Assembly (NCBI GenBank): GCA_963826115.1
Contig: CAWGVS010000005.1
Coordinates: forward strand, 864,001 to 928,000
DNA: 64,000 nucleotides
Reading direction: 5' to 3'
Source: an uncultured Candidatus Rokubacteria bacterium
Lineage (GTDB): Bacteria; Methylomirabilota; Methylomirabilia; Rokubacteriales; DASRDR01
In this document: piece after piece, positions 2,378 through 56,303 of the stretch
Layout: the number at the start of each line of letters is the position of its first letter
Position numbering within the stretch: position 1 is the first letter of the stretch
Position numbers and translations under genes: made by a program
Notes under the pieces: generated by a model
What the model was told of the DNA's origin: nothing
Seen by the model: the letters and a program-made list of their open reading frames with translations, nothing else
Database searches by the model: none

Positions 2378-3279
2378 GGGATCCCGGCCAGGAACTCGGT
2401 GATCGCGGCGGCGACGACGAGGGGCCGCTCGCGGTGGGCGAAGTGCCCCGCGCCGGCGATCACCCGGCGGGCACAGCCGCGGGGGAACCGATGCTCCTCG
2501 CTGGCCGACGTGTGGACCGGATCGACCGTGTCGTCCTCCCCGTGGAGGACGAGGGTCGGGACCTCGATGCGGGGCTGCGCGGCCAGGCGCGCCTCGTCGG
2601 CGTCCAGCCGGGGCTCGCCCGGCGCGTTGCCGTGCCGGTGGCGGTACGAGTGGATCACGACGTCGACGAAGTCGGGGTTGTCGAAGGACGCCGCCGTGCG
2701 CTCGAAGGTGGCGTCGTCGAAGGCCCACCCCGGCGACCACGTGCGCCAGAGATGGCGGCACAGCGCCCGCCGGTTCGTCGCCATCCCGGTCCGGCCCCGC
2801 TCGGTGTTGAAGTACCACTGGTACCAGAGCCGCGCTTCGTTGGCCGCATCGCCGGGCCGGGCCGCGCCCGCGATGTCCTGGATCTGGTAGCCCGCGAAGG
2901 TGACCAGGGCCCGCACACGCGCCGGATGGAGCGCCGCCGCGATGCAGGCCGCCCGCGCGCCCCAGTCCTGGCCGATGAGGACCGCCCGGTCGAGCGCGAG
3001 CGCATCCATGAGGTCGACGACGTCCCGTCCGATCGCGGCTTGCTGCGCCATGCGTGGCGCCGCCGGGTCGAGGAACCGCGTCGGTCCGAAGCCTCGGAGA
3101 TATGGCACGACGGTGCGATAGCCGCCGCCGACCAACGACGGGACCACGCCGTCCCACGCCCGCGCGTCGTCGGGGAAGCCGTGGAGCAGGATCGCCACCG
3201 GCCGCTCGGTCGGGCCGTGGAGCTCGTAGCCGATGTCCAGGAGATCCGTCCGCGCGCGGCACACCGCAGGATGCTCCAC
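2374..3279 (-). CDS. Alpha/beta fold hydrolase (epoxide hydrolase-like)
   Basis: LLHGFPD, GQDWGA nucleophile, GAGHF; GGGAGG RBS before GTG 3279. Confidence 0.92.
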   Translation of the reverse strand: MEHPAVCRARTDLLDIGYELHGPTERPVAILLHGFPDDARAWDGVVPSLVGGGYRTVVPYLRGFGPTRFLDPAAPRMAQQAAIGRDVVDLMDALALDRAVLIGQDWGARAACIAAALHPARVRALVTFAGYQIQDIAGAARPGDAANEARLWYQWYFNTERGRTGMATNRRALCRHLWRTWSPGWAFDDATFERTAASFDNPDFVDVVIHSYRHRHGNAPGEPRLDADEARLAAQPRIEVPTLVLHGEDDTVDPVHTSASEEHRFPRGCARRVIAGAGHFAHRERPLVVAAAITEFLAGIP

Positions 3280-3308
3280 CCGGCCTCCCGTCGATCCGTC
3301 GGCCGGGC

Positions 3309-4076
3309 TCACGGACGATCCGCGAGGACCGCCCACGCCGTCGCGATCCCGCGGAGACCCGGGACGTGGGACGCCGCCGCGTCGAGCCGGTGGTAGAGCG
3401 CTCCGGTCCAGGGCGCGAGGGGCACCCGGCCGGAGAGCCGGCCCCAGACGTTCCGGGGCAGCACGTGGAAGGCCCGGCAGCTCGCGACGCGGAAACCCGC
3501 ATCCTCGAAGAGGCGCGTCGCCTCGCGGCGGGTGTACGTCCGCTCGTGGTGGAACCGGCCGAGCGTGCGGCCGAGCCACTCCGTGTACGCGTGGCGATTC
3601 GGAAGGTGGTACGTGAAGAGTCGGCCGCCGGGCCGGAGGACCCGCGCGAGCTCGTCGAGCGCGCCACGCTCGTCGTCCACGTGCTCCAGAACGCCGCAGT
3701 TGAGGACCGCGTCGAAGGATCGGTCGGCGAACGGGAGCCCCGGACCGGCCGTCACGACGTAGGGCACCTCGGCCTTCCGGAGCAGGCCCGCCGCCGCGCC
3801 CTTGTCCTCCACGTCGTAGGCCACGACCCGCGCACCGTGGGCACGGAGGAGCAGGCTCGTCTGCCCCCACCCCGCGCCCCAGTCGAGGACGCGCCCCCCC
3901 CCGACCCACGCCGCGATCTCGGCGGCGATCGCGAGGTACTGGGCGACCCCGATCGGGCTCGCGATGTTCGAGCACTCGGGGCGCGTGGAAAGTCCTCGCT
4001 GTCCGAAGTCGAGGATCCGCGCCGCGGCGGCGTCGACCGCCCGAGGCCCCCGCGTCGCGTCGCGCGCCGGGCTCAT
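3309..4076 (-). CDS. Class I SAM-dependent methyltransferase
   Basis: VLDWGAGWG, LPFADRSFDAV, VLEHV, RVLRPGG. Confidence 0.9.
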   Translation of the reverse strand: MSPARDATRGPRAVDAAAARILDFGQRGLSTRPECSNIASPIGVAQYLAIAAEIAAWVGGGRVLDWGAGWGQTSLLLRAHGARVVAYDVEDKGAAAGLLRKAEVPYVVTAGPGLPFADRSFDAVLNCGVLEHVDDERGALDELARVLRPGGRLFTYHLPNRHAYTEWLGRTLGRFHHERTYTRREATRLFEDAGFRVASCRAFHVLPRNVWGRLSGRVPLAPWTGALYHRLDAAASHVPGLRGIATAWAVLADRP

Positions 4077-4954
4077 TGCGAGGCGCGCGCCCGCCGCCGG
4101 AGCGACCGGAGGACCGCGAGGTTCCGGGCGTCCCCGTCGTCGCGCTTCGGGGTCTCCAGGATCATGGGCCGGGCGCCGAGGCGCGGGTGGTTCAGGAGGT
4201 ACCGGAACGCCGCGAGGCCGATCTGTCCCGCCCCGATGTTCTCGTGACGGTCGAGCCCCGATGCGAGCCCCGCCCGGCAGTCGTTCAGGTGGAACCCCAC
4301 GATCCGCTCGAGTCCCACCGAGCGATCGAGCTCGTCGAGCACGGCGCCGAAGCGTCGGGGCGTCCGGATGTCGTAGCCGGCCGCGAAGAGGTGGCATGTG
4401 TCGAGACACACCGCCAGACGCTCGGGTCGGCGGACTCGGCCCAGGATCTCGCCGAGTTCTTCCGCGCGGGCCCCCAGCGTGTGACCCGCCCCCGCGGTGT
4501 TCTCGATTGCCACGCGCACCGCCCAGCCGTCGGTGCGCCGGGCGATCTCGTCGAGCGCGCCGACGAGGCGCGCGACCCCCACGGCGGCGCCCGCCCCCCG
4601 GTGGGAGCCCGGATGGAGGACGACGAACGGGAGCCCGAGCCGTTCGGCGCGCTCGAGGTCGTCGAGGAGCCCCGCCACCGCGCGCGCTCGCTCATCCGGG
4701 CCCGGCGCCGCGAGGTTGATCAGGTAGTTCGCGTGCGCGCATGCGAAGCGGAGCCCGGACGCGGCGAATTCGCGCCGGAACTCGCGGACCTGGTCCTCCT
4801 CGAGCCGGGGGCCGGTCCACCGGAGCTGGTTCTTGACGAAGACCTGCACGACGCCGCAGCCGGCCGCCACGCCGCGCCGGACGGCGTTCGCGAGCCCGCC
4901 GGCCACCGACATGTGCGCGCCGAGGTTGTCGGGCGCGGCGCCGCCCGGCCTCAG
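4073..4954 (-). CDS. nfo: Endonuclease IV (AP endonuclease)
   Basis: LGAHMSVAGG, HANYLINLA, VLHPGS, ENTAG, CLDTCHLFAAGYD, HLND, DRHENIG, ILETP. Start uncertain (CTG 4954 overlapping the upstream stop). Confidence 0.93.
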   Translation of the reverse strand: MRPGGAAPDNLGAHMSVAGGLANAVRRGVAAGCGVVQVFVKNQLRWTGPRLEEDQVREFRREFAASGLRFACAHANYLINLAAPGPDERARAVAGLLDDLERAERLGLPFVVLHPGSHRGAGAAVGVARLVGALDEIARRTDGWAVRVAIENTAGAGHTLGARAEELGEILGRVRRPERLAVCLDTCHLFAAGYDIRTPRRFGAVLDELDRSVGLERIVGFHLNDCRAGLASGLDRHENIGAGQIGLAAFRYLLNHPRLGARPMILETPKRDDGDARNLAVLRSLRRRARASQ

Positions 4955-5412
4955 CCGAGCTGCTTCACCTCCGCGAGGATCTTGGCCGGGTCGGGCAGGA
5001 CCCCGCGAGCGTAGCGCTCCGCGAAGCGGATGACGCCCTGCCCGTCGATCACGAACGTCGCGCGGTAGCACGCGTTCAGCTCCGGCCAGTGGATCCCGTA
5101 GCGCTTGACCACGTCGCGCTGGATGTCGGCCAAGAGCGGGTACGAGATCCCGCCGAGCGACTTGGCCCACGCCTCGTGGCTGTACATGGAGTCACAGGAG
5201 ATGCCCACGACCTGGGCATTGGCGGCCTCGAAGTCCCGGATCCGGGCCTCGAAGGCCGGCATCTCCTTCGTTCAGCCCGGAGTCCAGTCAAGAACGTAGA
5301 AGAGCAGGACGACCGATTTCCCTCGCTGCTCGGCGAGGCTCCACTCCCTGCCCCCGATACCCTGGAGCCGGATGTCCGGCGCCATCTCGCCCACTTTCGG
5401 CATCTCCGACAT
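4951..5412 (-). CDS. Peroxiredoxin (AhpC/BCP-like), probable selenoprotein; in-frame TGA 5272-5274 = Sec47
   Basis: AAGGAGG RBS then ATG 5412. Reads MSEMPKVGEMAPDIRL...VVLLFYVLDWTPG-TGA-TKEMPAFE...GISCDS..YPLLAD..RATFVID; the TGA sits at the peroxidatic Cys of the TxxC motif. Confidence 0.88.
5242..5259 (-). promoter_or_regulatory. Candidate bacterial SECIS hairpin of the peroxiredoxin
   Basis: CCGGCCT-TCG-AGGCC(C)GG stem-loop starting 12 nt after the in-frame TGA. Confidence 0.5.
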
Positions 5413-45184: not shown

Positions 45185-47224
45185 GTGGAGACGTACGGCG
45201 TCGTCGTCCGGTGGTTGCACGCGGCCGGCGCGGTCACGCTGGTCGGCGCGTTCACGTCCTTCCTGCTGGTCGCGCGGCCGGCCGCGCGCGCCGCCGGCGA
45301 CGCGGGGCACGAGCGCCTGCCGGAGCTCGACCGGCGCATCATGACGCTCGCCCGGATCGCGCTCGCGGTCACGCTGGTCGCCGCCGGGTTGGACCTCTGG
45401 CGCCAGGTGGGCGTGGCCACGGGCGCGGGCCTCCTCGAGAGCCTGGATCCCGGGCGGATCGTGTCCGTCCTCGCCGACACCCGCTACGGGATCGTGTGGC
45501 TCGCGCGGACCGGGCTCCTGCTCCTCCTGGCGGCCTTCCTCCTCCTGGCCGACGAGCGCGGCGAGAGCGACTGGCTCGCGCTCCGCGTCGAGGCTCTCGG
45601 TCTGTCGGCCGCGGCCCTCCTCCTGGGCGCCCTGGCCGGCCATGCCGCCGCGGCCGAGGTGAGCGCGCTCGCCGTGTCGTTCGACGCGCTGCACCTTCTG
45701 GCCACGGGCGTGTGGGCCGGAGGCCTCCTGCCGCTGGCGCTCTGTCTTGCGTGGGCGCGCGGGTTGCCGAGCTCGGCCGCGGCCGCGCGGGCCGCCGAGC
45801 GCTTCTCGAGGCTCGGTCTCGGCGCCGTCTCCGTGCTCGTCGTGACCGGCGGGTTCGCCGTGTGGCAGCAGGTGGGCGGCGTGCCCGCCGCCATCGGTAC
45901 CGTGTACGGGCGCTGGCTTCTGGTGAAGCTCGTCCTCGTGGCGGCCTTGATCCCCATCGCGGCGCGGAATCTCCTCGTCTGGCGGCGTCGCCTCGCCGCA
46001 CCGGGCCCGGAGAGCGCTGCCGCGGCGACCGCGCTCCTCAGGAACGTGTGGCGTGAGGCGGTTCTGGTGGCGGCGATCCTCGGTGTCGTCGCCGTGATGG
46101 GGCTGACGACGCCCGCGCTCCACGACGACGTCGTGTGGCCCCTCTCGTTCCGGTTCGACTGGGCCGCGACGAAGGCTCTCCCCGGCGTCCAGCCGCGCGT
46201 CGCGATCGGCAGCCAGGTCGCGACGCTCGGGCTCGTCGCCCTCCTCCTGGCCCTCCTGATCCGGCCGCGACGGTGGCGTGTCGCCGCGCTCGCGGGCGGG
46301 ATCGCGCTCGCGCTCGGCGCGACGGTCGCGCTCCACCCGCTGGCCGTCGACGCGAACCCCTCGACGTACGTGCGGCCGACGGTGCCGTACGCGGCCGCGT
46401 CGATCGTCCAGGGCCGGGCGATCTACCGGGCGAACTGCGAGGCGTGCCACGGCGTCGCCGGGTTCGGCGACGGCCCGGCGGGGAAGGGCCTGCCGCGCCC
46501 CCCGGCGGACCTCACCGCGCAGCACGCGGCGGACCACACGGCCGGCGATCTCTTCTGGTGGCTGTCCCACGGCATTCCCGGAAGCGGGATGCCCGGGTTC
46601 GCCGACCGGCTGAGCCCCGAGGAACGCTGGGACGCGATCAACTTTGTCCGCGCGCTGGGCGGGGCCGAGCGGTCGCGGGACCTCGGGCCGGTGGCCACCG
46701 CGCGTCCGGCGGTCGTCGCGCCCGACTTCACGTTCACGACCGGGGTCGGCGAGGGGCGGTCGCTTCGAGACTGGCGGGGCAGCGGGGTGGTGCTCCTGGT
46801 CTTCTTCACGCTCCCCGGCTCCGCGGACCGGCTCGCGGAGCTGAACCGGTTGCCGATGACCTTCAAGCTCCGGGGCGGCGAGATCGTGGGCGTCCCGCTC
46901 GGCGACGCGAGCGCAGTGTACCGGGAGCTGGCCGGCCGTTCGGTCTTTTTCCCGCTGGCGGTGGAGGGCGCGGCGGAGGCGGGCGAGACGTACATGCTGT
47001 TCCGGCGGGACCTGACGCCGGACGGTCTCAAGCCCGAGCCGCCGCCGGCGCGCCACATGGAGCTCCTGGTGGACCGGCAGGGCTACCTCCGGGCCCGCTG
47101 GATCCCGCGCGACCTCGGGCGCGAACGGGAGGGATGGGCCGACCTGAACCGTCTCCTCGAGGAAGTGGACCGGCTGTCTCGTGAGGTCCCGGTCGCGCCC
47201 ATCGCGGCCGAGCACGTGCACTGA
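45185..47224 (+). CDS. CopD family copper protein fused to cytochrome c and a thioredoxin-like domain
   Basis: RWLH, LAGHA, LHLLATGVWAGG, RFS, YGRWLLVK (CopD); CEACHG heme motif and GMPGF; APDF..VLLVFF..LVDRQGYLRARW. Confidence 0.88.
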   Translation: METYGVVVRWLHAAGAVTLVGAFTSFLLVARPAARAAGDAGHERLPELDRRIMTLARIALAVTLVAAGLDLWRQVGVATGAGLLESLDPGRIVSVLADTRYGIVWLARTGLLLLLAAFLLLADERGESDWLALRVEALGLSAAALLLGALAGHAAAAEVSALAVSFDALHLLATGVWAGGLLPLALCLAWARGLPSSAAAARAAERFSRLGLGAVSVLVVTGGFAVWQQVGGVPAAIGTVYGRWLLVKLVLVAALIPIAARNLLVWRRRLAAPGPESAAAATALLRNVWREAVLVAAILGVVAVMGLTTPALHDDVVWPLSFRFDWAATKALPGVQPRVAIGSQVATLGLVALLLALLIRPRRWRVAALAGGIALALGATVALHPLAVDANPSTYVRPTVPYAAASIVQGRAIYRANCEACHGVAGFGDGPAGKGLPRPPADLTAQHAADHTAGDLFWWLSHGIPGSGMPGFADRLSPEERWDAINFVRALGGAERSRDLGPVATARPAVVAPDFTFTTGVGEGRSLRDWRGSGVVLLVFFTLPGSADRLAELNRLPMTFKLRGGEIVGVPLGDASAVYRELAGRSVFFPLAVEGAAEAGETYMLFRRDLTPDGLKPEPPPARHMELLVDRQGYLRARWIPRDLGREREGWADLNRLLEEVDRLSREVPVAPIAAEHVH

Positions 47225-47264
47225 TCGACATGCGCCGGTCGATCGGGCATGCTCCCCTCGGACC

Positions 47265-47642
47265 ATGATGCGGCTCTGGAAGGTCGTCGTCCTCGTGAAC
47301 CTGGCGCTGGCCCTGGGGATCGGTCTCGGCTACCTCCGGTGGACGCGCGAGGTGCGCGGCCTTCGCGACGAGATCGAACGGCTCCGCGCCGAGGCGGCCC
47401 GCCCGGGCCCGCAGTCGTGGACGGTCCGGGGCATCGTGCGGTCCGTCATCCCGAAGCTGGGCGCGATCTTCCTCACCCACGAGGCCCTACCCGGTCTCAT
47501 GGACGCGATGACGATGGGTTTCGAGGCCGAGGATCCCAAGCTGCTCGACGGTCTCGCGCCCGGCGACTTCGTGCGCTTCACCGTGCGCCGGGACGGAGAG
47601 AAGCTGGTCCTGGTCATGATCGAGAAGGCGCGGACGCCGTGA
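47265..47642 (+). CDS. CusF-like copper-binding protein
   Basis: N-terminal TM; LTHEALPGLMDAMTMGF and LAPGDFVRFT. Confidence 0.85.
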   Translation: MMRLWKVVVLVNLALALGIGLGYLRWTREVRGLRDEIERLRAEAARPGPQSWTVRGIVRSVIPKLGAIFLTHEALPGLMDAMTMGFEAEDPKLLDGLAPGDFVRFTVRRDGEKLVLVMIEKARTP

Positions 47643-48052
47643 CGGCCCGCTTCTGGGCGGCCGGGCTCGCGCTCGCCGGGGTGGCCGCGGCGGGGGGCGC
47701 GCCGGCCTGGGCGATCCACACCTCGACGGACACGCCGCTCGCGATCGCCCCCGAGGACGTCCAGCGCTACCGGGAGGGGGGCGAGGAGGTCGTCGTGTTC
47801 GACCTGCGCCCGGCGGCCGCGTTCCTGAAGGGTCACCTGCCCCGGGCGCGGTCCTTGCCCCTGGGCGAGATGAAGCGTCGCGAGGCGGAGGTCCCGAGGA
47901 GCGGCCGCGTGGTGCTCTACGCGGGGACGCCCGAGGAGGCCGCGGCGGCCTACCAGCTCCTGCGCGAGGCGGGGCACCGGAACGTCATGGTGCTGGCGGG
48001 CGGGCTGCCGGCCTGGGTGCGGCTCGGCTACCCGATGGAGACCGGGCCGTGA
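47639..48052 (+). CDS. Exported rhodanese-like domain protein lacking the catalytic Cys
   Basis: FDLRP, GHLPRA, VVLYAG, LAGGLPAW; GTG overlaps upstream TGA. Confidence 0.85.
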   Translation: MTARFWAAGLALAGVAAAGGAPAWAIHTSTDTPLAIAPEDVQRYREGGEEVVVFDLRPAAAFLKGHLPRARSLPLGEMKRREAEVPRSGRVVLYAGTPEEAAAAYQLLREAGHRNVMVLAGGLPAWVRLGYPMETGP

Positions 48053-48411
48053 GCGGCGCGCGCGTCCGGCGCTGGACCGCGAGCGTCGCGGCGGCGGCGA
48101 CGCTTGGCCTCGCGGCGGGGGCGGCCGGCCAGGCGCCGGCGGGCGCCGTTCAGGAGCAGCTGCTCCTCGACAACGACACGGTGCGCGTGGCGTTCCTCGT
48201 ATTCCCTCCCGGCGCGGCGTCGGGCGAGCACGTCGGCCTCGACCCGGAGCTCGGCATCGTGCTCGAGGGCGAGCTGACGCTGATCACGGCCGCCGGTCGC
48301 GAGGTGCTGGGCCCGGGCGCGGTGCGGTGGCTGCCGGCGCTCGAGCCGCACGACGCGCGGAACGAAGGGACCGTGCCGCTCAAGCTCTGGGTCGTCCTGG
48401 TCAGGAAGTAG
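48049..48411 (+). CDS. Exported cupin domain protein
   Basis: Signal peptide; PPGAASGEH, IVLEGEL, PHDARNEG. Confidence 0.85.
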   Translation: MSGARVRRWTASVAAAATLGLAAGAAGQAPAGAVQEQLLLDNDTVRVAFLVFPPGAASGEHVGLDPELGIVLEGELTLITAAGREVLGPGAVRWLPALEPHDARNEGTVPLKLWVVLVRK

Positions 48412-48425
48412 CACGGGCCCGTCCG

Positions 48426-48896
48426 TCAGCGCCCGCGGGTGTTCCAGGCCCGCGTGATCAAGTGGTCGACCGAGATGGCGCCGGGCCCCCGCGTCAGCAG
48501 GAACAGGAGGATCGACCCCCAGACCAGGTGCTCGGACCACGCGCTCGGGTACACGAAGAGCTGGATCGTCGCGATCATCCCGAGGAGCGGCAAGGTCGCC
48601 AGGCGCGTCGCCAGCCCGAGGATCAGGAGGGTCGAGCAGGTCAGCTCGAAGCTCGTGGCCATCAGGGCCGCGATCTCCGGCGGGAACCCCGGCAGGCGGT
48701 ACTCGTCCCGGAAGAGGCCGAGCGTCGACTCCCAGCTGGACGCCTTGAGGAGCCCGGCCTTGAGGAACACGCTGGCGACGCCCAGCCGGAACAGGAGCTG
48801 GTGGAGCGAGAGCGGCACGCGGGCCAGTCGATCGAGCCAGCCCGCCACCCCGGGTCGGTGGTCGGTCACGGCGGCCTCGTACGTGGCAGTCATCAT
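48426..48896 (-). CDS. DoxX family membrane protein (BufD-like)
   Basis: LFRLGVASVFLKAG, LFRDEY, ELTCSTLLILGLATR, IQLFVYP..WSEH, GPGAISVD. Confidence 0.9.
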   Translation of the reverse strand: MMTATYEAAVTDHRPGVAGWLDRLARVPLSLHQLLFRLGVASVFLKAGLLKASSWESTLGLFRDEYRLPGFPPEIAALMATSFELTCSTLLILGLATRLATLPLLGMIATIQLFVYPSAWSEHLVWGSILLFLLTRGPGAISVDHLITRAWNTRGR

Positions 48897-49708
48897 CGGG
48901 AGCCTCCTTCCTCCATGGCCTCGGCGGCCCGAGCGGGATGCGGTGCGACGGTGAATCCCGTGATCAGCGCCTCGTCGAGCAGGGCCCGGAGCGCCGCCGG
49001 GAGGTCGAACACGGGGTTCTGGGCCATCGCGCGGGCGGCGACCGCCTCCAGCGTCTCGCCGCCGCCCAGCCCGGACCGGAACGCGTGCTCGGCCGGCTCG
49101 AGGCGGCGCATCGTCGCGACGTCGTCCTGACGGCGAATCTCGAGCCGCGTCGCTCCGGCGGCGACATCGACCACGCCGTCGGCGTCCGGCTGGTTCGCGT
49201 GCCAGATGCGGTCCACCGGCCAGGGCGAGGCAAGCCACGCGGCCGCGGGATCCAGCCGGAAGACCAGGCGATCCACGTCGTCCGCGGCCACGACGCCGAG
49301 GGCCGCCGGCGAGATCGGGACGGCCTCGTCCGCGTGGAGCGCGACGTTCATCGCCCATTCGAGCCGCGCGACGTCGGCGAGGTACGGGTCGTCTGCGCAC
49401 GGCGGGAAGCTCGCGAGGAAGTCCGGGAACGTGGCGCCGTACTCGAAGAGGCACGGCCCCGCTGGCGGGTGGCTCCGGATGAACCGGTCCGCGGCGAAGC
49501 CGAAAAAGCGGCGGTCCACGAGCCGGCAGACCACCGGGAACGTCGCCTCGAGCGCCTCCGTCAGGCTCGAGAACACGTGGTTCCAGTAGATCTGCACGCG
49601 GGCGGCCGGCGCGAGCCCGTCGCCGACGACGGCGCTCGCCACCTCGCGGGCGTCCTCCCGCCAGATCGACCGCGCGAAGCCCGCCTGGAGCTCAGGCAGC
49701 GTGGGCAT
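48893..49708 (-). CDS. DUF2063 family MNIO partner protein (BufC-like)
   Basis: LQAGFA, VQIYWN, FPVVCRLV, YGATFPDF, YLADVARLEWA. Confidence 0.88.
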   Translation of the reverse strand: MPTLPELQAGFARSIWREDAREVASAVVGDGLAPAARVQIYWNHVFSSLTEALEATFPVVCRLVDRRFFGFAADRFIRSHPPAGPCLFEYGATFPDFLASFPPCADDPYLADVARLEWAMNVALHADEAVPISPAALGVVAADDVDRLVFRLDPAAAWLASPWPVDRIWHANQPDADGVVDVAAGATRLEIRRQDDVATMRRLEPAEHAFRSGLGGGETLEAVAARAMAQNPVFDLPAALRALLDEALITGFTVAPHPARAAEAMEEGGSR

Positions 49709-50552
49709 CGCGCGTCGCGTGGAGGAGCCGGGCGTCGGCTTGCCGGGCCTCTCCCATCAGGGTGTCGAGCGGCGGAATGGCGGTGTCCCACTCGACGAGG
49801 GTCGGGCGCGGGCCGAAGCGGCGGAGCGCCTCCTCGTAGAGTGCCCACACCGCCGGGCTGACCGGCGAGCCGTGGTCGTCGATCAGGATCGGCCGGCCGT
49901 CCGTCTCGTTCACGGAGTGGCCGGCGACGTGGATCTCCCCCACCGCGCCGGCGGGGAGCGCGGCCAGGTACGCGCGGGCGTCGAGGCCGAGGTTCTCCGC
50001 CGTGACGTGGATGTTGTTCACGTCGCAGAGGAGGCCGCAGCCCGTCCGGCCGGCGAGGGCCGCCAGGAACTCGGGCTCCGGGATCGTCGAGCCGGCGAAC
50101 CGGAGGTAGCCGGATGGATTCTCGACGAGGATCCGGCGGCCGAGGGCCGTCTGGATCTCGTCCACGTTCCGGCATACCGCGTCGAGCGACTCCTCTGTGT
50201 ACGGCAGCGGGAGGAGATGGTTCAGGTAGGCGCCGCCCGCCTGGCTCCACGCCAGGTGCTCCGACACCATGGCCGGCTCGAAGCGGTCCACGAGACCCTT
50301 CAGCCGGCCGAGGTGGCGGCGGTCCACTCCGGCGGCGCTCCCGACCGACAGACCGACCGCGTGGAACGACAGCGGGTACTCGCCGCGGATCGCCTCGAGC
50401 GACCGGACCGCGGGGCCGCCGCCGAGGTAGTTCTCCGGATGGACCTCGACCCAGGACAGCGCGGGACGGGTGGCCTGGACCTCGGCGACGTGCGGGCTCC
50501 GGAGCCCGATTCCGGCCCGCGCCGGAAGCCCCTGCCCGCCGTTCAAGGTCAC
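49692..50552 (-). CDS. DUF692 multinuclear non-heme iron oxidative enzyme (BufB-like)
   Basis: GIGLRSPH, EVHPENY, HAVGLS, SEHLAW, ENPS, CDVNN, EIHVAGH, IDDHG, LVEWD. Confidence 0.95.
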   Translation of the reverse strand: MTLNGGQGLPARAGIGLRSPHVAEVQATRPALSWVEVHPENYLGGGPAVRSLEAIRGEYPLSFHAVGLSVGSAAGVDRRHLGRLKGLVDRFEPAMVSEHLAWSQAGGAYLNHLLPLPYTEESLDAVCRNVDEIQTALGRRILVENPSGYLRFAGSTIPEPEFLAALAGRTGCGLLCDVNNIHVTAENLGLDARAYLAALPAGAVGEIHVAGHSVNETDGRPILIDDHGSPVSPAVWALYEEALRRFGPRPTLVEWDTAIPPLDTLMGEARQADARLLHATRDAHAA

Positions 50553-50862
50553 GCCACCCGTCCTCGCCGCCTGGAAGGGCTGGTTAGGCGCGGGGCTGCA
50601 TGCTGCCGTTGACGAGCCGCGCGCAGGTGCCCTTCGGGACGTACACCCAGGCGTCCTTCTGGCCGTCCCGCTTGGACGTTCCCGCGCACGAGGAGTTCGC
50701 GGTCTGGCAGTCGTTCTTGGCGGCCTTCGCGATGCCGAAGCACTTCTCGGCCTCGAACTTCGGGGCCGGGGCCGGCTGGGCGCCGGTGATGGCGGGCACC
50801 GCGATCGCGGCGGCGATGGCGGAGGCGAGGAAGAGTCGCGTGTTCATCGGGTCATCTCCTTC
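50467..50862. repeat. ~395-bp direct repeat, copy A (precursor gene plus 5' end of DUF692)
   Basis: Closely matches 53941-54336 at an offset of 3474 bp. Confidence 0.9.
50584..50847 (-). CDS. DUF2282 family bufferin-type precursor (copy 1)
   Basis: Signal peptide; [27 protein letters not shown] four-Cys pattern; AAGGAG RBS. Confidence 0.92.
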
Positions 50863-51083
50863 CGACGGCTAAGGGTTGTGTGTGCTCCGCTCCCCGGTCC
50901 GGTGGCCGCGGCGGCACGCGCCGGCTCCCCGGACTGGCGAGCCACCTTCTTTGACACGCGGACCAGCCCTCCCGGTTCGCGCCCCGGGAGAGCGTAGCGG
51001 GGTTCCGGCGGGGAGCCGGACGGGCTGGGCCGGCCGATGGCCCGACCAGGGGTCGCGCCAGGATCGTGCAAGCGTCGCGATCG

Positions 51084-51761
51084 CTACGCCGCAAACCGGT
51101 ACCCCTGACCGTGCACGGTCAGGATGTGCTCGGGCCGCTCGGGGTCGCGCTCGAACTTCTGGCGCAGCCGGAGAACGTGGGTGTCCACCGTCCGCGTCGT
51201 GGGGAAGCGCTCGTACCCCCAGACCTCGTCGAGCAGACGCTCGCGGGTGAGGATCTCCCCCGGATGCTCGACCAGATAGCGCAGCAGGTCGAACTCCTTG
51301 CGCGTGAGCCGGACCTCGCTCCCGGCGCGGAAGGCCTGGCGCGCCCGCAGGTGGACCCGGATGTCCGAGAACTGGAAGACGTCCATGCGCTGCCGCGGGC
51401 CGGGCCGCCGGAGGACCGCGCGGACTCGCGCGAGGAGCTCGCGCAGCGAGAACGGCTTCGTGATGTAGTCGTCCGCCCCCAGCTCGAGCCCCAGGACGCG
51501 GTCCGCCTCCTCCCCGCGCGCCGTGAGCATCACGACCGGGATGTCGATTCCCTTCCGGCGGAGCGCGCGGAGGACGTCCCAGCCGCTCGAGCCCGGCATG
51601 GCGACGTCGAGAAGGATGAGGTCCGGCCCCTCGCGGAACGCGAGGTCGAGGCCCTCCTGTCCGGACACCGCGGCCAGAGTCTGGTAGCCCTCGAACCGGA
51701 GGTTGTCCTCGAGCCCCCGCACCATCGCGGGCTCGTCGTCGACGATCAGGATGCGCGGCAT
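51084..51761 (-). CDS. OmpR/PhoB family response regulator
   Basis: ILIVDDE, LLDVAMP, MLTA, GADDYITKPF, LTRKEFDLL, TRTVDTHV. Confidence 0.96.
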   Translation of the reverse strand: MPRILIVDDEPAMVRGLEDNLRFEGYQTLAAVSGQEGLDLAFREGPDLILLDVAMPGSSGWDVLRALRRKGIDIPVVMLTARGEEADRVLGLELGADDYITKPFSLRELLARVRAVLRRPGPRQRMDVFQFSDIRVHLRARQAFRAGSEVRLTRKEFDLLRYLVEHPGEILTRERLLDEVWGYERFPTTRTVDTHVLRLRQKFERDPERPEHILTVHGQGYRFAA

Positions 51762-51771
51762 GAGGAGGCGT

Positions 51772-53310
51772 TCAATGCGGTCGGGCCGCCGGCGGGGGGC
51801 CGGGAAGCCAGAGCGTGAAGCGGCTCCCTCCGCCCGGCTGGCTGTCCACGCTGACCCGCCCTCCGTGCGCGTGCGCCACGTGCCGGACCAGCGCGAGCCC
51901 GACCCCGCTCCCGCGCCGGCCCTGGGTCTCGCTCCGCCCCACGCGGTAGAACTTGTCGAAGATCCGCCCATGCTCCTCCCCGGGGATGCCGATACCCTCG
52001 TCGCCCACGGTGATCGCGACGCCGCCGTCCCGCGGGGCCGCCTCCACCGTGAGGACCTTCCGCGTCGCGGAGTACTTGATCGCGTTGTCGATCAGGTTCG
52101 CGAGCGCCTGGCCGACGGCGTCGACGTCGATCGGCACCTCGGGCAGGTCGGGCTGGATCGCCACGTCCACCTTGAACCCCTGCCGGGCCAGGACGTAGGC
52201 GAAGCTCTCGACCGTGTCCCGGACGAGGGCCTCCACGCTCGCCGGCACCAGGTCGTAGGTGCGCCGGCCGCCCTCGATGCGCGAGAAGTCGAGGACGTTC
52301 TCGATGAGCCGGGACAGCCGCTCGCTCTCGCGGGTGATGACCTGGTAGTACTCGTGGCGCGTCTTCTCGTCGCTCACGCGTCCCATCTCGAGCGTCTCGC
52401 CGAATACCCGGATCAGGGCGAGCGGCGTCTTGAGGTCGTGCGAGACGTTGGCGACGAACTCGGCCTTGAGGCGCGCCGTCTCGGTCTCGCGCCGGACCAG
52501 CCGGTACGTCGCGAGCACGCCGATGGCGATCACCACCAGGAGGAGACCGAATGCGAGGCTGAAGAGCACCACCTGACGATCGATGGCCGCCTGCGGGGAG
52601 ACCCCCGCCGGCTGGTCGAGGGCGAGCCGCCACGCGGGCAGCGCCTCGCTGAGCGGCACCGCCACGACGGCCTCCGCCGGCCCGGCGCCCGCCCGCCGGA
52701 AGACCGGCTGGTCGCGATGGTCGGTGACCGTGAGGAGCGGCACCTCGGGCCCGCCCAGGGCCGGCTCGAGGACGTCCCGCCGGATGACGGTCGGGTCGAG
52801 CACCATCAGGGCGAGGAAGGCCGGGTTGCCCCCGCGGCGGACCAGGCAACCCACCACCAGGTCGTCACCGACGACCCGGTGCGCCTTGCCGCCCTCCCGC
52901 CACACGGACCGCCCGAGGTCGTCGAGCGGCCCCTCGAGGGCCAGCCCCGCCGGCGCCCCGCCGCTCGGGTAGACGGCGCGGCCGGCCCGGTCGAAGAGGG
53001 CGAGCCGGGCGATGAGTGGGGTGTCCGCCAGCAGGGCGTCCACCGCGTCGGCGGCAATGGCGCCGCTTCGCGCCGCCGCCTCGAGGCGCCCCATGACCGC
53101 GTACTCCGCGCTGCGGAGCCTCAGGTCGACCTTCTCCGCGACCATGATGGCCATGCTCCGGGACTGCTCCCGGAAGAGCTCGTCGGCGGACCGGCGCCAC
53201 TGGCGGAGCGAGTGGTAGCCGAGAACGGCCAGGACCACGGCGGGCACCCCGATGGCGACGAGCGCGAAGGCCGTGAAGCGGACCCAGGGCGAGCCGCGCC
53301 CTCCCATCAT
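51772..53310 (-). CDS. Membrane sensor histidine kinase
   Basis: Two TM segments, NVSHDLKTPL H-box, NLIDNAIKYS, DEGIGI, GSGVGL; ATG overlaps the upstream TGA. Confidence 0.95.
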   Translation of the reverse strand: MMGGRGSPWVRFTAFALVAIGVPAVVLAVLGYHSLRQWRRSADELFREQSRSMAIMVAEKVDLRLRSAEYAVMGRLEAAARSGAIAADAVDALLADTPLIARLALFDRAGRAVYPSGGAPAGLALEGPLDDLGRSVWREGGKAHRVVGDDLVVGCLVRRGGNPAFLALMVLDPTVIRRDVLEPALGGPEVPLLTVTDHRDQPVFRRAGAGPAEAVVAVPLSEALPAWRLALDQPAGVSPQAAIDRQVVLFSLAFGLLLVVIAIGVLATYRLVRRETETARLKAEFVANVSHDLKTPLALIRVFGETLEMGRVSDEKTRHEYYQVITRESERLSRLIENVLDFSRIEGGRRTYDLVPASVEALVRDTVESFAYVLARQGFKVDVAIQPDLPEVPIDVDAVGQALANLIDNAIKYSATRKVLTVEAAPRDGGVAITVGDEGIGIPGEEHGRIFDKFYRVGRSETQGRRGSGVGLALVRHVAHAHGGRVSVDSQPGGGSRFTLWLPGPPPAARPH

Positions 53311-53858
53311 CCCCGCTCGTCGAGGAGCCGGCGGATCATCGCCTCCGTCTCGGTGTAGGCCCCTTCCCCGATGTGCGTGTGGCGGATCACTCCACGGCGG
53401 TCCACGAGGACCGTGGTCGGCCACGCCCACGTCCGAAAGCGCTTCCAGATCGCGAAGTCGTTGTCCTGGACGACGGGATAGCGGATGCCGAGCTCCCGGA
53501 CGGCGCCTGCCACGCGGTCATGCGAGCGCTCCCAGAGGAACTCCGGGGAGTGGACGCCGACGATCGTGAGCCCCGACTCGCCGTACCGCTCGTGCCAGCC
53601 CCGCAACTGCGGGATCACGTTCTTGCAGTTGATTCAGCCGTAGGTCCAGAACTCGACCAGGACCACGCGCCCGCGGAGACTGCCGAGCGACAGTGGCTCG
53701 CTGTTGATCCAGGGACCGCCGGCGATCTCCGGCGCGGGCTGGCCGATCCCGGCCCCCCGCTGGCCGTCGGCGTGGGACGGCCAGAGAGCCCCCGCCGTGA
53801 TCGCCGCCACGAGCGCGACCAGCCCGATGGCCCAGCTGAGAGCCGCTCCTCGTTGCAT
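53307..53858 (-). CDS. Exported DipZ/TlpA-like thioredoxin (redoxin), probable selenoprotein with U-x-x-C; in-frame TGA 53634-53636 = Sec75
   Basis: GAGGTG RBS, ATG 53858, signal/TM. Reads WINSEPLS..LVEFWTYG-TGA-INCKNVIPQL..GVHSPEF..YPVVQDN..WPT..HIGEG; the two ORF-track fragments are in frame. Confidence 0.9.
53600..53613 (-). promoter_or_regulatory. Candidate SECIS hairpin of the thioredoxin
   Basis: CCCGC-AGTT-GCGGG starting 20 nt after the TGA. Confidence 0.5.
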
Positions 53859-53879
53859 CGTCGACACCTCTCGGATGCG

Positions 53880-53925
53880 AGTGTACCGAGGGGCCACGCC
53901 CGCGATGTCACGACGGTGTGAGATC
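53880..53925 (-). promoter_or_regulatory. Promoter/operator of the thioredoxin-kinase-regulator operon
   Basis: GATCTCACACCGTCGTGACA box then TACACT -10; box is 17/20 identical to 54408-54427. Confidence 0.6.
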
Positions 53926-53940
53926 CGCCCCGGCGCCCAA

Positions 53941-54026
53941 CGGGTGGCGCGAGCCTCGGTGACGCGCGGGCCGGGGAGCCCGATCCCGGCCCGCGCCGGA
54001 AGCCCCTGCCCGCCGTTCAAGGTCAC
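53941..54026 (-). pseudogene. Truncated 5' remnant of the DUF692 gene
   Basis: MTLNGGQGLPARAGIGL identical to the intact DUF692 start; similarity ends after ~29 codons. Confidence 0.8.
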
Positions 54027-54057
54027 GCCACCCGTCCACGCCGCCTGGACGGACCGC

Positions 54058-54321
54058 CTACGCGCGCGGCTGCATACTGCCGTTGACGATCCGGTCGCAG
54101 GTGCCCTTCGGGACGTACACCCAGGCGTCCTTCTGGCCGTCCCGCTTGGACGTCCCCGCGCACGAGGAGTTTGCGGTCTGGCAGTCGTTCTTGGCGGCCT
54201 TCGCGACGCCGTAGCACTTCTCGGCCTCGAACTTCGGGGCCGGGGCCGGCTGGGCGCCGGTGATGGCGGGGACCGCGATCGCCGCGGCGATGGCGGAGGC
54301 GAGGAAGAGTCGCGTGTTCAT
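54058..54321 (-). CDS. DUF2282 family bufferin-type precursor (copy 2)
   Basis: 83/87 aa identical to copy 1; AAGGAGG RBS. Confidence 0.92.
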
Positions 54322-54382
54322 CGGGTCATCCTCCTTCGATCTGATGAGAGGTTCTTCGAGCCGTGGAGCGCTCCACGGCCGC

Positions 54383-54427
54383 AGTATGGCGCGGGGGGAA
54401 GTGGAGGTGTCACGAGCGTGTGAAATC
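54383..54427 (-). promoter_or_regulatory. Promoter/operator of precursor copy 2
   Basis: GATTTCACACGCTCGTGACA box then CATACT -10. Confidence 0.6.
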
Positions 54428-54452: not shown

Positions 54453-56303
54453 CTAGCCGAGCAGGGCGACGATGGCTTCCTCGTCGGCGGCCCCGAGGGC
54501 GGTCAGGCGGAGCCGCACGGCGCCGGGTCCGTCGGAGGCCATGACCTTCGCGTAGATGGCCTCCGATGTCCGGTCGAGCGGCGGGGGGTACCGGAGCTGC
54601 AGCTTGACGTTGGTCAGGGGGGCCAGCGGCTCCCCGAGGGTCGCCTCGACGTCCCGCCGGCCGAGCCGCACGACCCGTCCCGCGATCGGGTCCGGCCGCA
54701 CGACCTTGCCGTCGATGACCCAGCACACGAGCGGGAGCTCCACGGCCACGAGCCGGGCAGCCTCCTCCGGCTCGGTGGGCAGGTCGCGGGCGAACCGGCC
54801 GCCGAGACCGCGCAGCTCGTGTAGCACGAGGGGCTCGGAGAGTCCCTTGACCTCGACGGCCACCGGCGGGCCCACGCGCGCCAAATCGCCCAGCTCGGCC
54901 AGCGTCCGCGCGGTCAGCAGCACCTGGCCGCCCACGGTGGCGCTCTCGACGCGGCTCGCGATGTTGACGGCGCTGCCCACCACGGCGTACTTCGCCCGCT
55001 GCTCCGAGCCGATGTTCCCCACCACGGCCTCCCCCGTGTGAAGGCCGATGCCCATCTCGAACGCGGGCAGCCCTGCCCGGGCGTGCTCGGCGTTGACCTC
55101 GACCAGGGCGGCCTGCATCGCGAGCGCGGTGGCGGCCGCCCGCTCGGCGTGGTCCGGATGGGGTACCGGGGCCCCGTACACGGCGAAGATCGCGTCGCCG
55201 ATGAACTCGTTGATGGTGCCGCCGTGCGCGATGACGACCTCGGCCATGCGCGCCAGGTAGCCGTTCAGGATCTCCATCACTTGCTCGGGGTCGCCCTTCT
55301 CGGCGAAGCGCGTGTAGCCTCGGAGGTCGGACATCAGCACGGTGACGACCCGCTTCGTGCCACCGAAGCGGAGGCCTTCGGGCGACTCGAGGAGCGCCTG
55401 GGCAACCTCCGGCGAGACGTAGCGGCCGAACGCCGAGCGGATGAAGTCGCGCTGGCGGAGCCCGTCGAGCATGGAGTTGAAGGCTTGCATGAGGCGGCCC
55501 ATCTCGTCTCGCGACGTCACGACGAGGGGCTCGGAGAGGTCGCCGCCCGCGACGCGGGAGACTCCGCCCGTGAGGAGCGCGATGGGGCGCGTCAGCCGGC
55601 GCAGGACGAGCAAGCCGAGGACGAGCGTGGCCACGGCCCCCAAGCCGCTGGCGAACAGGAGGCTGTTCCGGAGCTCGTGCAGGCGGTCCAGGTAGATCTC
55701 GACCGGGTAGGTGACGTGGAGAAGGGCGCCGGGCCGCCCCTGGGGGTCGAGGACGGGCGCGAAGGCCGAGATCCAGAGCCGGCCCTGGTCGCGATAGACG
55801 CGCGTGTAGCGCGCCACACCGTCGCCGAGCGTCCAGCCCATCGGCTCGACCAGCTCCGGCGGGAGCGGATAGGGGTCGCCCGGCCGCCCGGAACCGCTGC
55901 TGGCGAGCACCAGGCGTGCCATCCGTGTCGCGGGCTGGAGGTCCACCAGCGTGGTGATCGGGCTCGTCAGGAGGGTCTCATCCTGGATGGCTCCGAGCGT
56001 CTGGCGGAGGCGCAGGTAGGCCGGCGAGTCGGTCGAGCGGGACGCGTCGACCTCCGCGTGGAGCCGGGGGTCGAGCTGGAGGGCCGCGACGCGCGCGATG
56101 TTGAGGAGCTGCGTCCCGACCGAGTCCTCGACCTCGCGCTGCTGACGCGTGTAGGTCAGGACGCCGACCGCCCCGACCGCCAGGAACGTGACCGCGGCGA
56201 AGAACGCGGCGAGACGGACGCTCAGCCGCTGCCACGGCCGGAGAGGGGGCGGCGCGCTAACCGGCGGTCCCGGCGTGGCCGGGCTCACCTCTGGGCTCGT
56301 CAT
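54453..56303 (-). CDS. Membrane class III adenylate/guanylate cyclase with HAMP domain
   Basis: TM-periplasmic-TM-HAMP; [36 protein letters not shown]. Confidence 0.93.

Follow-up and report, generated by a model that had tools for sequence, protein, structure and literature searches.

A selenoprotein redoxin with a two-component system, inserted into a bufferin operon of an uncultured Rokubacteria bacterium

Bufferins are a very large family of peptides that are made by the ribosome and modified after translation (RiPPs), and their regulation has been described only via a sigma/anti-sigma pair. What could govern a bufferin operon that has no such pair, and why would this operon contain a selenoprotein together with a two-component system? 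Both questions are raised by positions 48426..54427 of a 64,000-nt stretch (about 73% G+C; hereafter the window, to which all positions refer) of contig CAWGVS010000005.1 from an uncultured Candidatus Rokubacteria bacterium. As had been proposed from the letters alone (the original prediction), and as open reading frames (ORFs) with their Pfam and NCBIfam matches confirm, the minus strand carries, one after another, bufA1 copy 2, a bufB remnant, a selenocysteine redoxin, a sensor histidine kinase (HK), a response regulator (RR) and bufA1-bufB-bufC-bufD. The locus is a mosaic, composed of a Buf1-type operon, bufA1-bufB-bufC-bufD, and a 2.9-kb redoxin-HK-RR cassette. We favour, as probable though well short of assured, the reading that the cassette encodes a two-component system for envelope oxidative or copper stress that controls the bufferin genes in this genus, and that it was later captured by its target operon. 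The Buf1-type cluster and the UxxC kind of redoxin are known; the bufferin cluster with an inserted seleno-redoxin/two-component cassette is new.

The redoxin-HK-RR cassette is an older, order-wide cassette of Rokubacteria/Methylomirabilota-type relatives, not a bufferin accessory. A six-frame search of 60 relatives returned strong redoxin orthologues (E below 1e-60) in 47 genomes. Forty of these 47 loci were taken, each with flanks of at most 9 kb; the seven left out are two unpublished genomes, a contig of very short length and four others. Gene calls in these loci passed our own third-position G+C filter, and the evidence throughout comes from metagenome-assembled genomes, about 120 loci in all from one phylum-level group. 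An HK gene is present in 31 of the 40 loci and in each of the 31 directly follows the redoxin gene, with the RR gene next in 28. The overlap of the redoxin stop with the HK ATG, read in the window by the original prediction, is confirmed as ATGA, and of 26 orthologous pairs 19 retain this 4-nt overlap. Bufferin genes accompany the cassette in three of the 40 loci, in two architectures, so the linkage does occur in related genomes: L049 has the gene order of the window, L057 has the same order on a contig that ends in the RR gene, and L088, from another family, has bufA-bufB-bufC-bufD and a secreted Met-rich protein, followed by redoxin-HK-RR. No bufferin gene lies within the fetched sequence, up to 9 kb per side, in 36 of the 40. 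A survey of 80 public loci gave two that are bufferin-linked, which are probably genomes already counted and hence not independent.

[quoted passage not shown] Counted without the alternative-frame overlap between the msrP query and the RR gene, a true msrP is found in 18 of the 40 loci (12 after the RR gene, four directly after the redoxin gene in the absence of an HK, and two before the redoxin gene), none of them from the window's genus, and msrQ is found in 15. These neighbourhoods bear on the role first proposed for the selenoprotein, that it sets or resets the thiol/disulfide state of the four-Cys bufferin precursors in the periplasm. Redoxin and bufferin genes do lie together, and probably share a transcription unit, in the window, L049 and L057 (and adjacent, in another order, in L088), and both the redoxin and the precursors begin with an export-like segment. 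However, besides the 36 loci free of bufferin genes and the predominance of msrPQ as partner, of 61 genomes 60 match the redoxin query but only 23 have a BufB above the cut-off, and nine genomes of the genus have a complete bufferin operon that the redoxin gene does not adjoin. Moreover, according to the sections available of the Caulobacter study, BufB and BufC are enough for modification in vitro (PMC11626156). A dedicated part in bufferin maturation is therefore not supported for what is, in this operon, a translocated insert, and we regard such a role as very unlikely.

The link between cassette and bufferin genes is seen instead in a 16-nt box. Intact copies stand upstream of both bufA1 copy 2 and the redoxin gene, such that the regulator module sits inside what would be its own target operon. 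The former (TCACACGCTCGTGACA, TCACA-N6-TGACA; 54408..54423, minus strand), a putative RR site, lies 86 nt upstream of bufA1 copy 2, and the latter (TCACACCGTCGTGACA; 53906..53921, minus strand) lies 47 nt upstream of the redoxin start. The leader of bufA1 copy 1 (50848..51083, minus strand) is homologous to the sequence that lay upstream of the ancestral bufA1; it has diverged at the box position (about 51041-51065), where neither a pattern search nor an alignment found an intact box. With this box decayed, bufA1-bufBCD would probably be expressed by read-through. Base composition predicts 6.4 copies of the pattern T[CG]ACA-N6-T[CG]ACA in the 6.24-Mb genome; three are present, two of them those described here. 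Among the relatives, each of the 10 fetched loci of the genus in which an HK follows the redoxin has the box 54-69 nt ahead of the redoxin gene, and the strict form also lies upstream of that gene in 12 loci of other genera, giving 22 of 40 in total, mostly as the sole copy in about 18 kb. If the pattern is relaxed (N5-6, A or G as the last base), 31 of the 40 loci have it before the redoxin gene. Variants with TGACA in both halves reveal the box to be a direct repeat with 11-bp spacing, the form expected of sites for OmpR/PhoB regulators.

Every one of the genus's 11 bufferin loci has the same box, with flanks GATTT...C, 130-230 nt before bufA1; nine of these loci belong to genomes that carry the cassette elsewhere, and an alignment of the bufA1 upstream regions shows leaders that have diverged around a box that is itself kept. 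Fifteen genomes of the genus contain 70 boxes, compared with 25 for a reversed control; 12 precede a redoxin gene and 12 precede bufA1. Six of the remaining boxes were fetched: two precede msrB with a twin-arginine-like leader, with msrA next in one of them, two stand ahead of a DUF3179 gene with a second redoxin gene that a TGA interrupts, one is followed by the gene of an NDH-2-like flavoprotein, and the last, on a short contig, by a glycosyltransferase fragment. Since the redoxin operon, bufA1, msrB-msrA and the second seleno-redoxin have the box in common, the system most likely senses envelope oxidative and/or copper damage. The earlier proposal of two-component control over the bufferin genes is thereby rendered plausible, by a box shared between the redoxin operon and bufA1 in 11 of 11 loci of the genus, with the binding of the RR to that box as its putative step.

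Several details of these boxes may be recorded here. The boxes before msrB (SelR) stand about 80-85 nt upstream of the gene (L200:3542-4146, followed by 2813-3538, and L201:3519-4122). The DUF3179 gene behind a box is split into two ORFs (L199:2052-4199, minus strand; L202:363-1811, plus strand), which may mean a further in-frame stop, and in L199 an AhpC/TSA-type redoxin, interrupted by TGA, comes after the split gene. A box variant, TGACAG(G/A)CC(C/T)TTGACA, is found in seven genomes of the genus and may mark another conserved target. The third box of the window's own genome, TGACAGACGTCTGACA (G000:C2:20854-20869, minus strand), lies among ORFs with no clear Pfam family. We note that the 16-mer TCACACAGGGGTGACA, which occurs in five copies in the relative G014, resembles a repeated element rather than a regulatory box and inflates the box count of that genome. 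A MerR-type reading of the long spacer between -35 and -10 was rejected, as the spacer, judged by eye, is unconserved and has no dyad.

How did the cassette come to lie between two copies of bufA1? In the lineage of this genome it moved into the bufferin operon, with a duplication of bufA1 and of the 87 nt at the 5' end of bufB. The translocated unit (box, redoxin, HK and RR; 51065..53937, minus strand, about 2.9 kb) is 80-82% identical to the cassette in three relatives of the genus and is bracketed by two direct repeats of about 395 nt each, 3.5 kb apart. Repeat copy 2 (53940..54335, minus strand) is made up of bufA1 with its ribosome-binding site, the intergenic spacer and about 87 nt from the 5' end of bufB, and is about 90% identical to repeat copy 1 (50466-50860), which has the same content. 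In eight other loci of the genus the order is thiamine pyrophosphate enzyme, redoxin, HK and RR, with a convergent solute-binding gene next in seven. When whole loci are compared with those of three relatives of the genus, the flanks of the ancestral cassette match contig C2 of the window's genome, where they lie about 0.8 kb apart and form an empty site. The left junction (53937-53940) is 16-19 nt from the box before the redoxin gene, and the right junction (51065) is located where the ancestral bufA1 box would sit. The same insertion is present in two other assemblies (L049; L057 plus L186), in which the bufB remnant is more eroded. In these two sister assemblies the box before the first bufA1 copy is lost and that before the second is intact, the opposite of the loss seen in the window. 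Such a pattern would be expected if a shared ancestor had three boxes and its descendants lost different ones.

Repeats of this kind could also arise in assembly: the two copies are about 90% alike and 3.5 kb apart, and no public contig bridges the junctions of the insert. The window, however, lies within a 2.1-Mb contig, the ancestral cassette site is empty in this very genome, and the two other assemblies of the genus have the cassette at the same place with sequence differences of their own, which makes an artefact unlikely in itself; taken together, we consider that explanation extremely improbable.

The proximity of the junctions to the box raises a different question, namely whether the box is the site of the RR at all. 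It could be the site of some other factor or a promoter element, and the cassette could have landed by chance recombination at a short shared sequence, with no regulatory tie to the operon. Both junctions fall within about 20 nt of a box position, as expected if the box was the recombination point, and there is a likeness between GTGACA, the second half-site, and a -35 hexamer. Against this stand the 11-bp direct-repeat form, typical of OmpR/PhoB regulators; the retention of the box before the regulator's own operon in two families; the coherence of the genes behind other boxes, msrB-msrA and a second seleno-redoxin; and the divergence of the leader while the box stays. We consider this alternative quite unlikely.

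A number of observations weigh against our favoured reading of an envelope-stress system that controls bufferin, beginning with this possible other identity of the box. The box pattern was taken from the window and then counted elsewhere. In the sister family the box precedes bufA1 in none of the 10 published bufferin loci, a count that leaves aside two unpublished genomes, one with the box and one without it, so that the link between box and bufferin is confined to a single genus; its members, like relatives within one genus generally, are not independent. In the window's own genome msrPQ is found on contig C11 and at a distant site of C5, both without a box. Judged by family models, moreover, the HK and RR are not members of the CusSR or HprSR families: the HK scores 127 bits against the heavy-metal kinase model TIGR01386 (cut-off 293), and the RR scores 193 against the heavy-metal regulator model TIGR01387 (cut-off 279) and 162 against the HprR model NF008567 (cut-off 353). 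Finally, the folding energy of the selenocysteine insertion sequence (SECIS) region is no better than that of shuffled sequence (z 0.04), a measure that is uninformative at 73% GC.

In the mechanism that we nevertheless prefer, the HK and RR would activate promoters that carry the box. The core regulon would comprise the cassette itself and genes of Met-sulfoxide repair: msrPQ, which outside the genus is part of the operon, the box-preceded msrB-msrA, and a secreted Met-rich protein encoded in some relatives. The bufferin operon would have been added to this regulon in the window's genus, with the two-component system replacing the role that the sigma/anti-sigma pair has in Caulobacter. The signal would most likely be periplasmic oxidative damage, whether copper-driven or not.

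The Met-rich proteins are small, secreted, Met/Lys/Asp-rich repeat proteins, encoded in sister-family relatives between the box and the redoxin gene (L088:9498-9779, minus strand, 93 aa; L078, 91 aa, 18% Met), and like repeats occur upstream in L061, L071, L074, L081 and L084. They could serve as an oxidant sink recycled by MsrP, or as a Cu(I) sponge. The two msrPQ loci of the window's genome are paralogous, each with a CoA-transferase gene, msrP, two small ORFs and msrQ (G000:C11:105522-107644 and G000:C5:2033517-2035658), and a gene for a fusion of homocysteine methyltransferase with methylenetetrahydrofolate reductase precedes each msrP locus.

The redoxin itself (53307..53858, minus strand) is a DipZ/TlpA-type thioredoxin-fold protein, putatively exported, with Pfam matches to AhpC-TSA, Redoxin and Thioredoxin_8. 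Its in-frame TGA (53634..53636, minus strand) falls in the motif WTYG-U-INC and aligns with TGC in Cys orthologues; the active-site codon is TGA in 34 and TGC in six of the 40 orthologues. Bacterial SECIS elements are expected at a set spacing just downstream of the UGA. Here, a 14-nt apical hairpin, CCCGC-AGUU-GCGGG (53600..53613, minus strand), with a 5-bp stem and an AGUU loop, is placed 21-34 nt after the TGA, and it is exact in 34 of 34 TGA orthologues versus none of the six Cys orthologues. The invariant hairpin spans a TTG Leu codon, rare at such G+C, and the Cys genes have drifted at synonymous sites. The 80 public loci comprise 51 TGA forms, 26 Cys forms and three unread, with the exact hairpin in 49 of the 51 TGA forms and one of the 26 Cys forms. 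In addition, genes for the decoding machinery are clustered on contig C8 and score above their cut-offs (selB 348 bits, selA 577 bits, tRNA-Sec 76.9 bits). The claim that the U-x-x-C redoxin is a selenoprotein is thus borne out, and by these decoding signals we take it to be a genuine one. Homologues of about 50% identity in other phyla are all Cys forms, with no adjacent HK or msrP that matches our queries.

Across 26 sequences the U75-x-x-C78 active site is invariant, and all 26 start with a basic and then a hydrophobic segment, which may serve in export. Among solved structures the best match is DipZ in its thioredoxin-like domain (2HYX, E 4e-42), with the common motif FW.Y.CINC, followed by SOQ1, NHLRC2, YkuV and ResA and, weakly, the N-terminal domain of the MsrA/B protein PilB. 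Like the C-terminal domain of DipZ, the redoxin has a thioredoxin fold; unlike DipZ, it stands alone with its own export-like segment, is not fused to a CcdA membrane domain, and is encoded ahead of an HK gene. Like the N-terminal thioredoxin domain of Neisseria PilB (a weak structure-database match at E 3e-6, with NF010625 as the family model), it would be periplasmic and tied to methionine-sulfoxide reductases, whereas it is a selenoprotein from a separate gene and its partner is the molybdoenzyme MsrP. MsrP is not known to need a thiol donor. A UxxC TlpA-like ('thiol-disulfide isomerase-like', cd02966) selenoprotein family appears in the part available of a 2026 review, which also mentions a Methylomirabilota genome with 63 selenoprotein genes (PMC13188914); the redoxin enzyme thus belongs to a known kind, the likeness consisting in the UxxC/TlpA-like description given there. 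It is most likely a periplasmic reductase or peroxidase of this regulon, the target of reduction being conjectural.

A second selenoprotein candidate is encoded elsewhere in the window, an AhpC/TSA peroxiredoxin at 4951-5412 (minus strand) with a TGA at 5272-5274 that gives DWTPG-U-TKE on read-through. The ORF past this TGA matches the back part of the Pfam profile only.

The HK (51772..53310, minus strand) has two transmembrane segments, a periplasmic domain of about 215 aa that lies outside known families, and HisKA and HATPase_c domains. In the ESM Atlas the clusters nearest to the sensor domain are unnamed, with weak leads (0.86-0.88) to CSS-motif, CHASE4 and dCache domains, and a single-sequence structure prediction of the HK was unusable (mean pLDDT 46). 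Within the periplasmic domain Met56 is invariant in 28 of 28 kinases and Met53 is kept in 82%. No order-wide conserved Cys was found there in the kinase alignment; Cys155 (Cys154 in most relatives) is kept within the genus only. The RR (51084..51761, minus strand) belongs to the OmpR/PhoB family, with Response_reg and Trans_reg_C domains, and among NCBIfam models it scores highest with PhoB, at 227 bits, which does not reach that model's cut-off.

These features also bear on whether the redoxin might be the primary sensor rather than a repair enzyme, with oxidation of its selenol or thiol in the periplasm being read by the sensor domain of the HK. The fixed order of redoxin and HK in 31 of 40 loci, the translational coupling in 19 of 26 pairs and a sensor domain that fits no named family would suit such a partnership. 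On the other hand, msrP directly follows the redoxin gene, with no HK, in four of the 40 loci, and the lack of an order-wide conserved Cys in the sensor would leave a mixed disulfide or selenosulfide relay without a fixed acceptor. This lack also makes a thiol relay through a conserved Cys unlikely as a form of the redox relay to the kinase that the original prediction suggested. We give the primary-sensor role a small chance. Its extended form, in which a selenol-based front end of the HK governs an envelope-repair regulon (msrPQ, msrBA and Met-rich secreted proteins) that was rewired to bufferin in one genus and then captured, is likewise a possibility to which we attach little weight. If true, no earlier case would exist of a histidine kinase with a selenoprotein as its co-sensor, nor of a bufferin cluster that a two-component system controls.

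The system that we favour, a two-component regulator of envelope repair with bufferin among its targets, has a close parallel in E. coli. According to the available portions of two reports, msrPQ of E. coli is induced by HOCl via YedVW/HprSR and by copper via CusSR, periplasmic Met residues are important for the activity of the YedVW/HprSR kinase, and MsrP keeps CusF working (bioRxiv 10.1101/2021.09.09.459708; PMC9302797). In a like manner, msrP is found beside the cassette in 18 of the relatives' 40 loci, in keeping with the tie between copper stress and Met-sulfoxide repair set out in those portions, and Met56 of the periplasmic domain is invariant in HKs of the window's type. Unlike HprSR and CusSR, the HK and RR stay under the family cut-offs, the sensor domain lies outside known families, a selenoprotein gene is coupled to the HK gene, and the system of the window adjoins bufferin genes, not msrPQ.

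The bufferin genes of the window conform to the Buf1 type, as the original prediction had held: DUF2282 precursors, a BufB above the NF050167 cut-off, a DUF2063 protein and DoxX. Products of Buf1 clusters are further marked by thiooxazoles formed from Cys and by copper binding. Both precursors have four Cys; bufA1 copy 2 (54058..54321, minus strand) encodes 87 aa (PF10048, E 6.3e-24) and is 95% identical to bufA1 copy 1 (50584..50847, minus strand; E 4.8e-23). The MNIO maturase gene bufB (49692..50552, minus strand) scores 369.3 bits against the NF050167 cut-off of 310 and matches PF05114 at E 5e-100. The partner protein gene bufC (DUF2063; 48893..49708, minus strand; PF09836, E 9e-22) and bufD (DoxX; 48426..48896, minus strand; PF07681, E 4e-13) are above the Pfam cut-offs, with the NCBIfam HvfC and HvfX models below theirs. 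The bufB remnant (about 53940-54026, minus strand), without a Pfam match, repeats 29 codons of the bufB 5' end. From its GTG at 54026 it is in frame with the redoxin ORF (53634-54026, minus strand), and translation from this old bufB start would put about 56 residues ahead of the redoxin export segment; the shared frame may be chance (one frame in three).

In gene content and order (DUF2282 precursor, MNIO BufB, DUF2063 partner, DoxX) the cluster resembles buf1 of Caulobacter vibrioides, and both have a copper-related neighbourhood, which here includes a CusF-like gene and a CopD fusion. The differences are the two precursor copies, the seleno-redoxin and two-component system inside the operon and the box before bufA1. 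In addition, buf1 has SigF/NrsF, whereas no Sigma70 or NrsF family was found by Pfam among the cluster genes or the 43 other called ORFs of the window; the absence of an extracytoplasmic function sigma factor and NrsF from those 43 ORFs (E <= 1e-5) upholds the earlier statement that the window has no sigma/anti-sigma pair. In the sections available of the bufferin papers (including PMC11626156), sigma/anti-sigma pairs and tandem precursors are mentioned, and a term search of the main text available returned no two-component system, thioredoxin or histidine kinase, bar one reference title. A limited search of open-access full text, for selenocysteine with MsrP, histidine kinase or Rokubacteria, gave no such cassette among the matches listed.

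Judged from their Pfam-type annotations, the flanks of the cluster are a copper- and metal-related neighbourhood. Convergent to the bufferin operon lie genes for a CopD-cytochrome c-thioredoxin-like fusion (679 aa), a CusF-like protein, a rhodanese and a cupin (45185-48411, plus strand), and the same set is present in L049. On the other side are a HAMP adenylate cyclase gene (54453-56303, minus strand) and then Fur, NicO and DUF1007. The cyclase, whose N-terminal part looks periplasmic, is the constant upstream neighbour of the bufferin operon in nine of 11 loci of the genus and lies upstream of the first bufA1 copy in the remaining two; it is co-oriented with the operon, and the box sits in the gap between them.

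A simple sigma-70 promoter scan of the region returned no site, and the two terminator-like sites in the region both fall within the coding sequences of bufB and bufC. Since none lies between genes, bufA1 copy 2 through bufBCD may form one transcript, driven from the two boxes. No public sequencing run contained half of the query words; two (X1 and X2) contained short exact pieces at low depth, and the sole public RNA run held fragments of relatives only.

In sum, within an uncultured soil phylum the locus joins a peptide that chelates copper, a periplasmic selenoenzyme and the repair of methionine sulfoxide, a joint theme that fits E. coli, where, in the accounts cited above as far as they are available, the response to copper stress is tied to that to Met oxidation in the periplasm. 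The locus offers a clean natural case of a regulator module relocated into its own target operon, with a duplicated box decayed in opposite copies in sister genomes, and it presents to selenoprotein research a conserved, tightly coupled redoxin-kinase pair. For the bufferin family, a different control logic is visible from the DNA, and the defined 16-nt box makes it directly testable.

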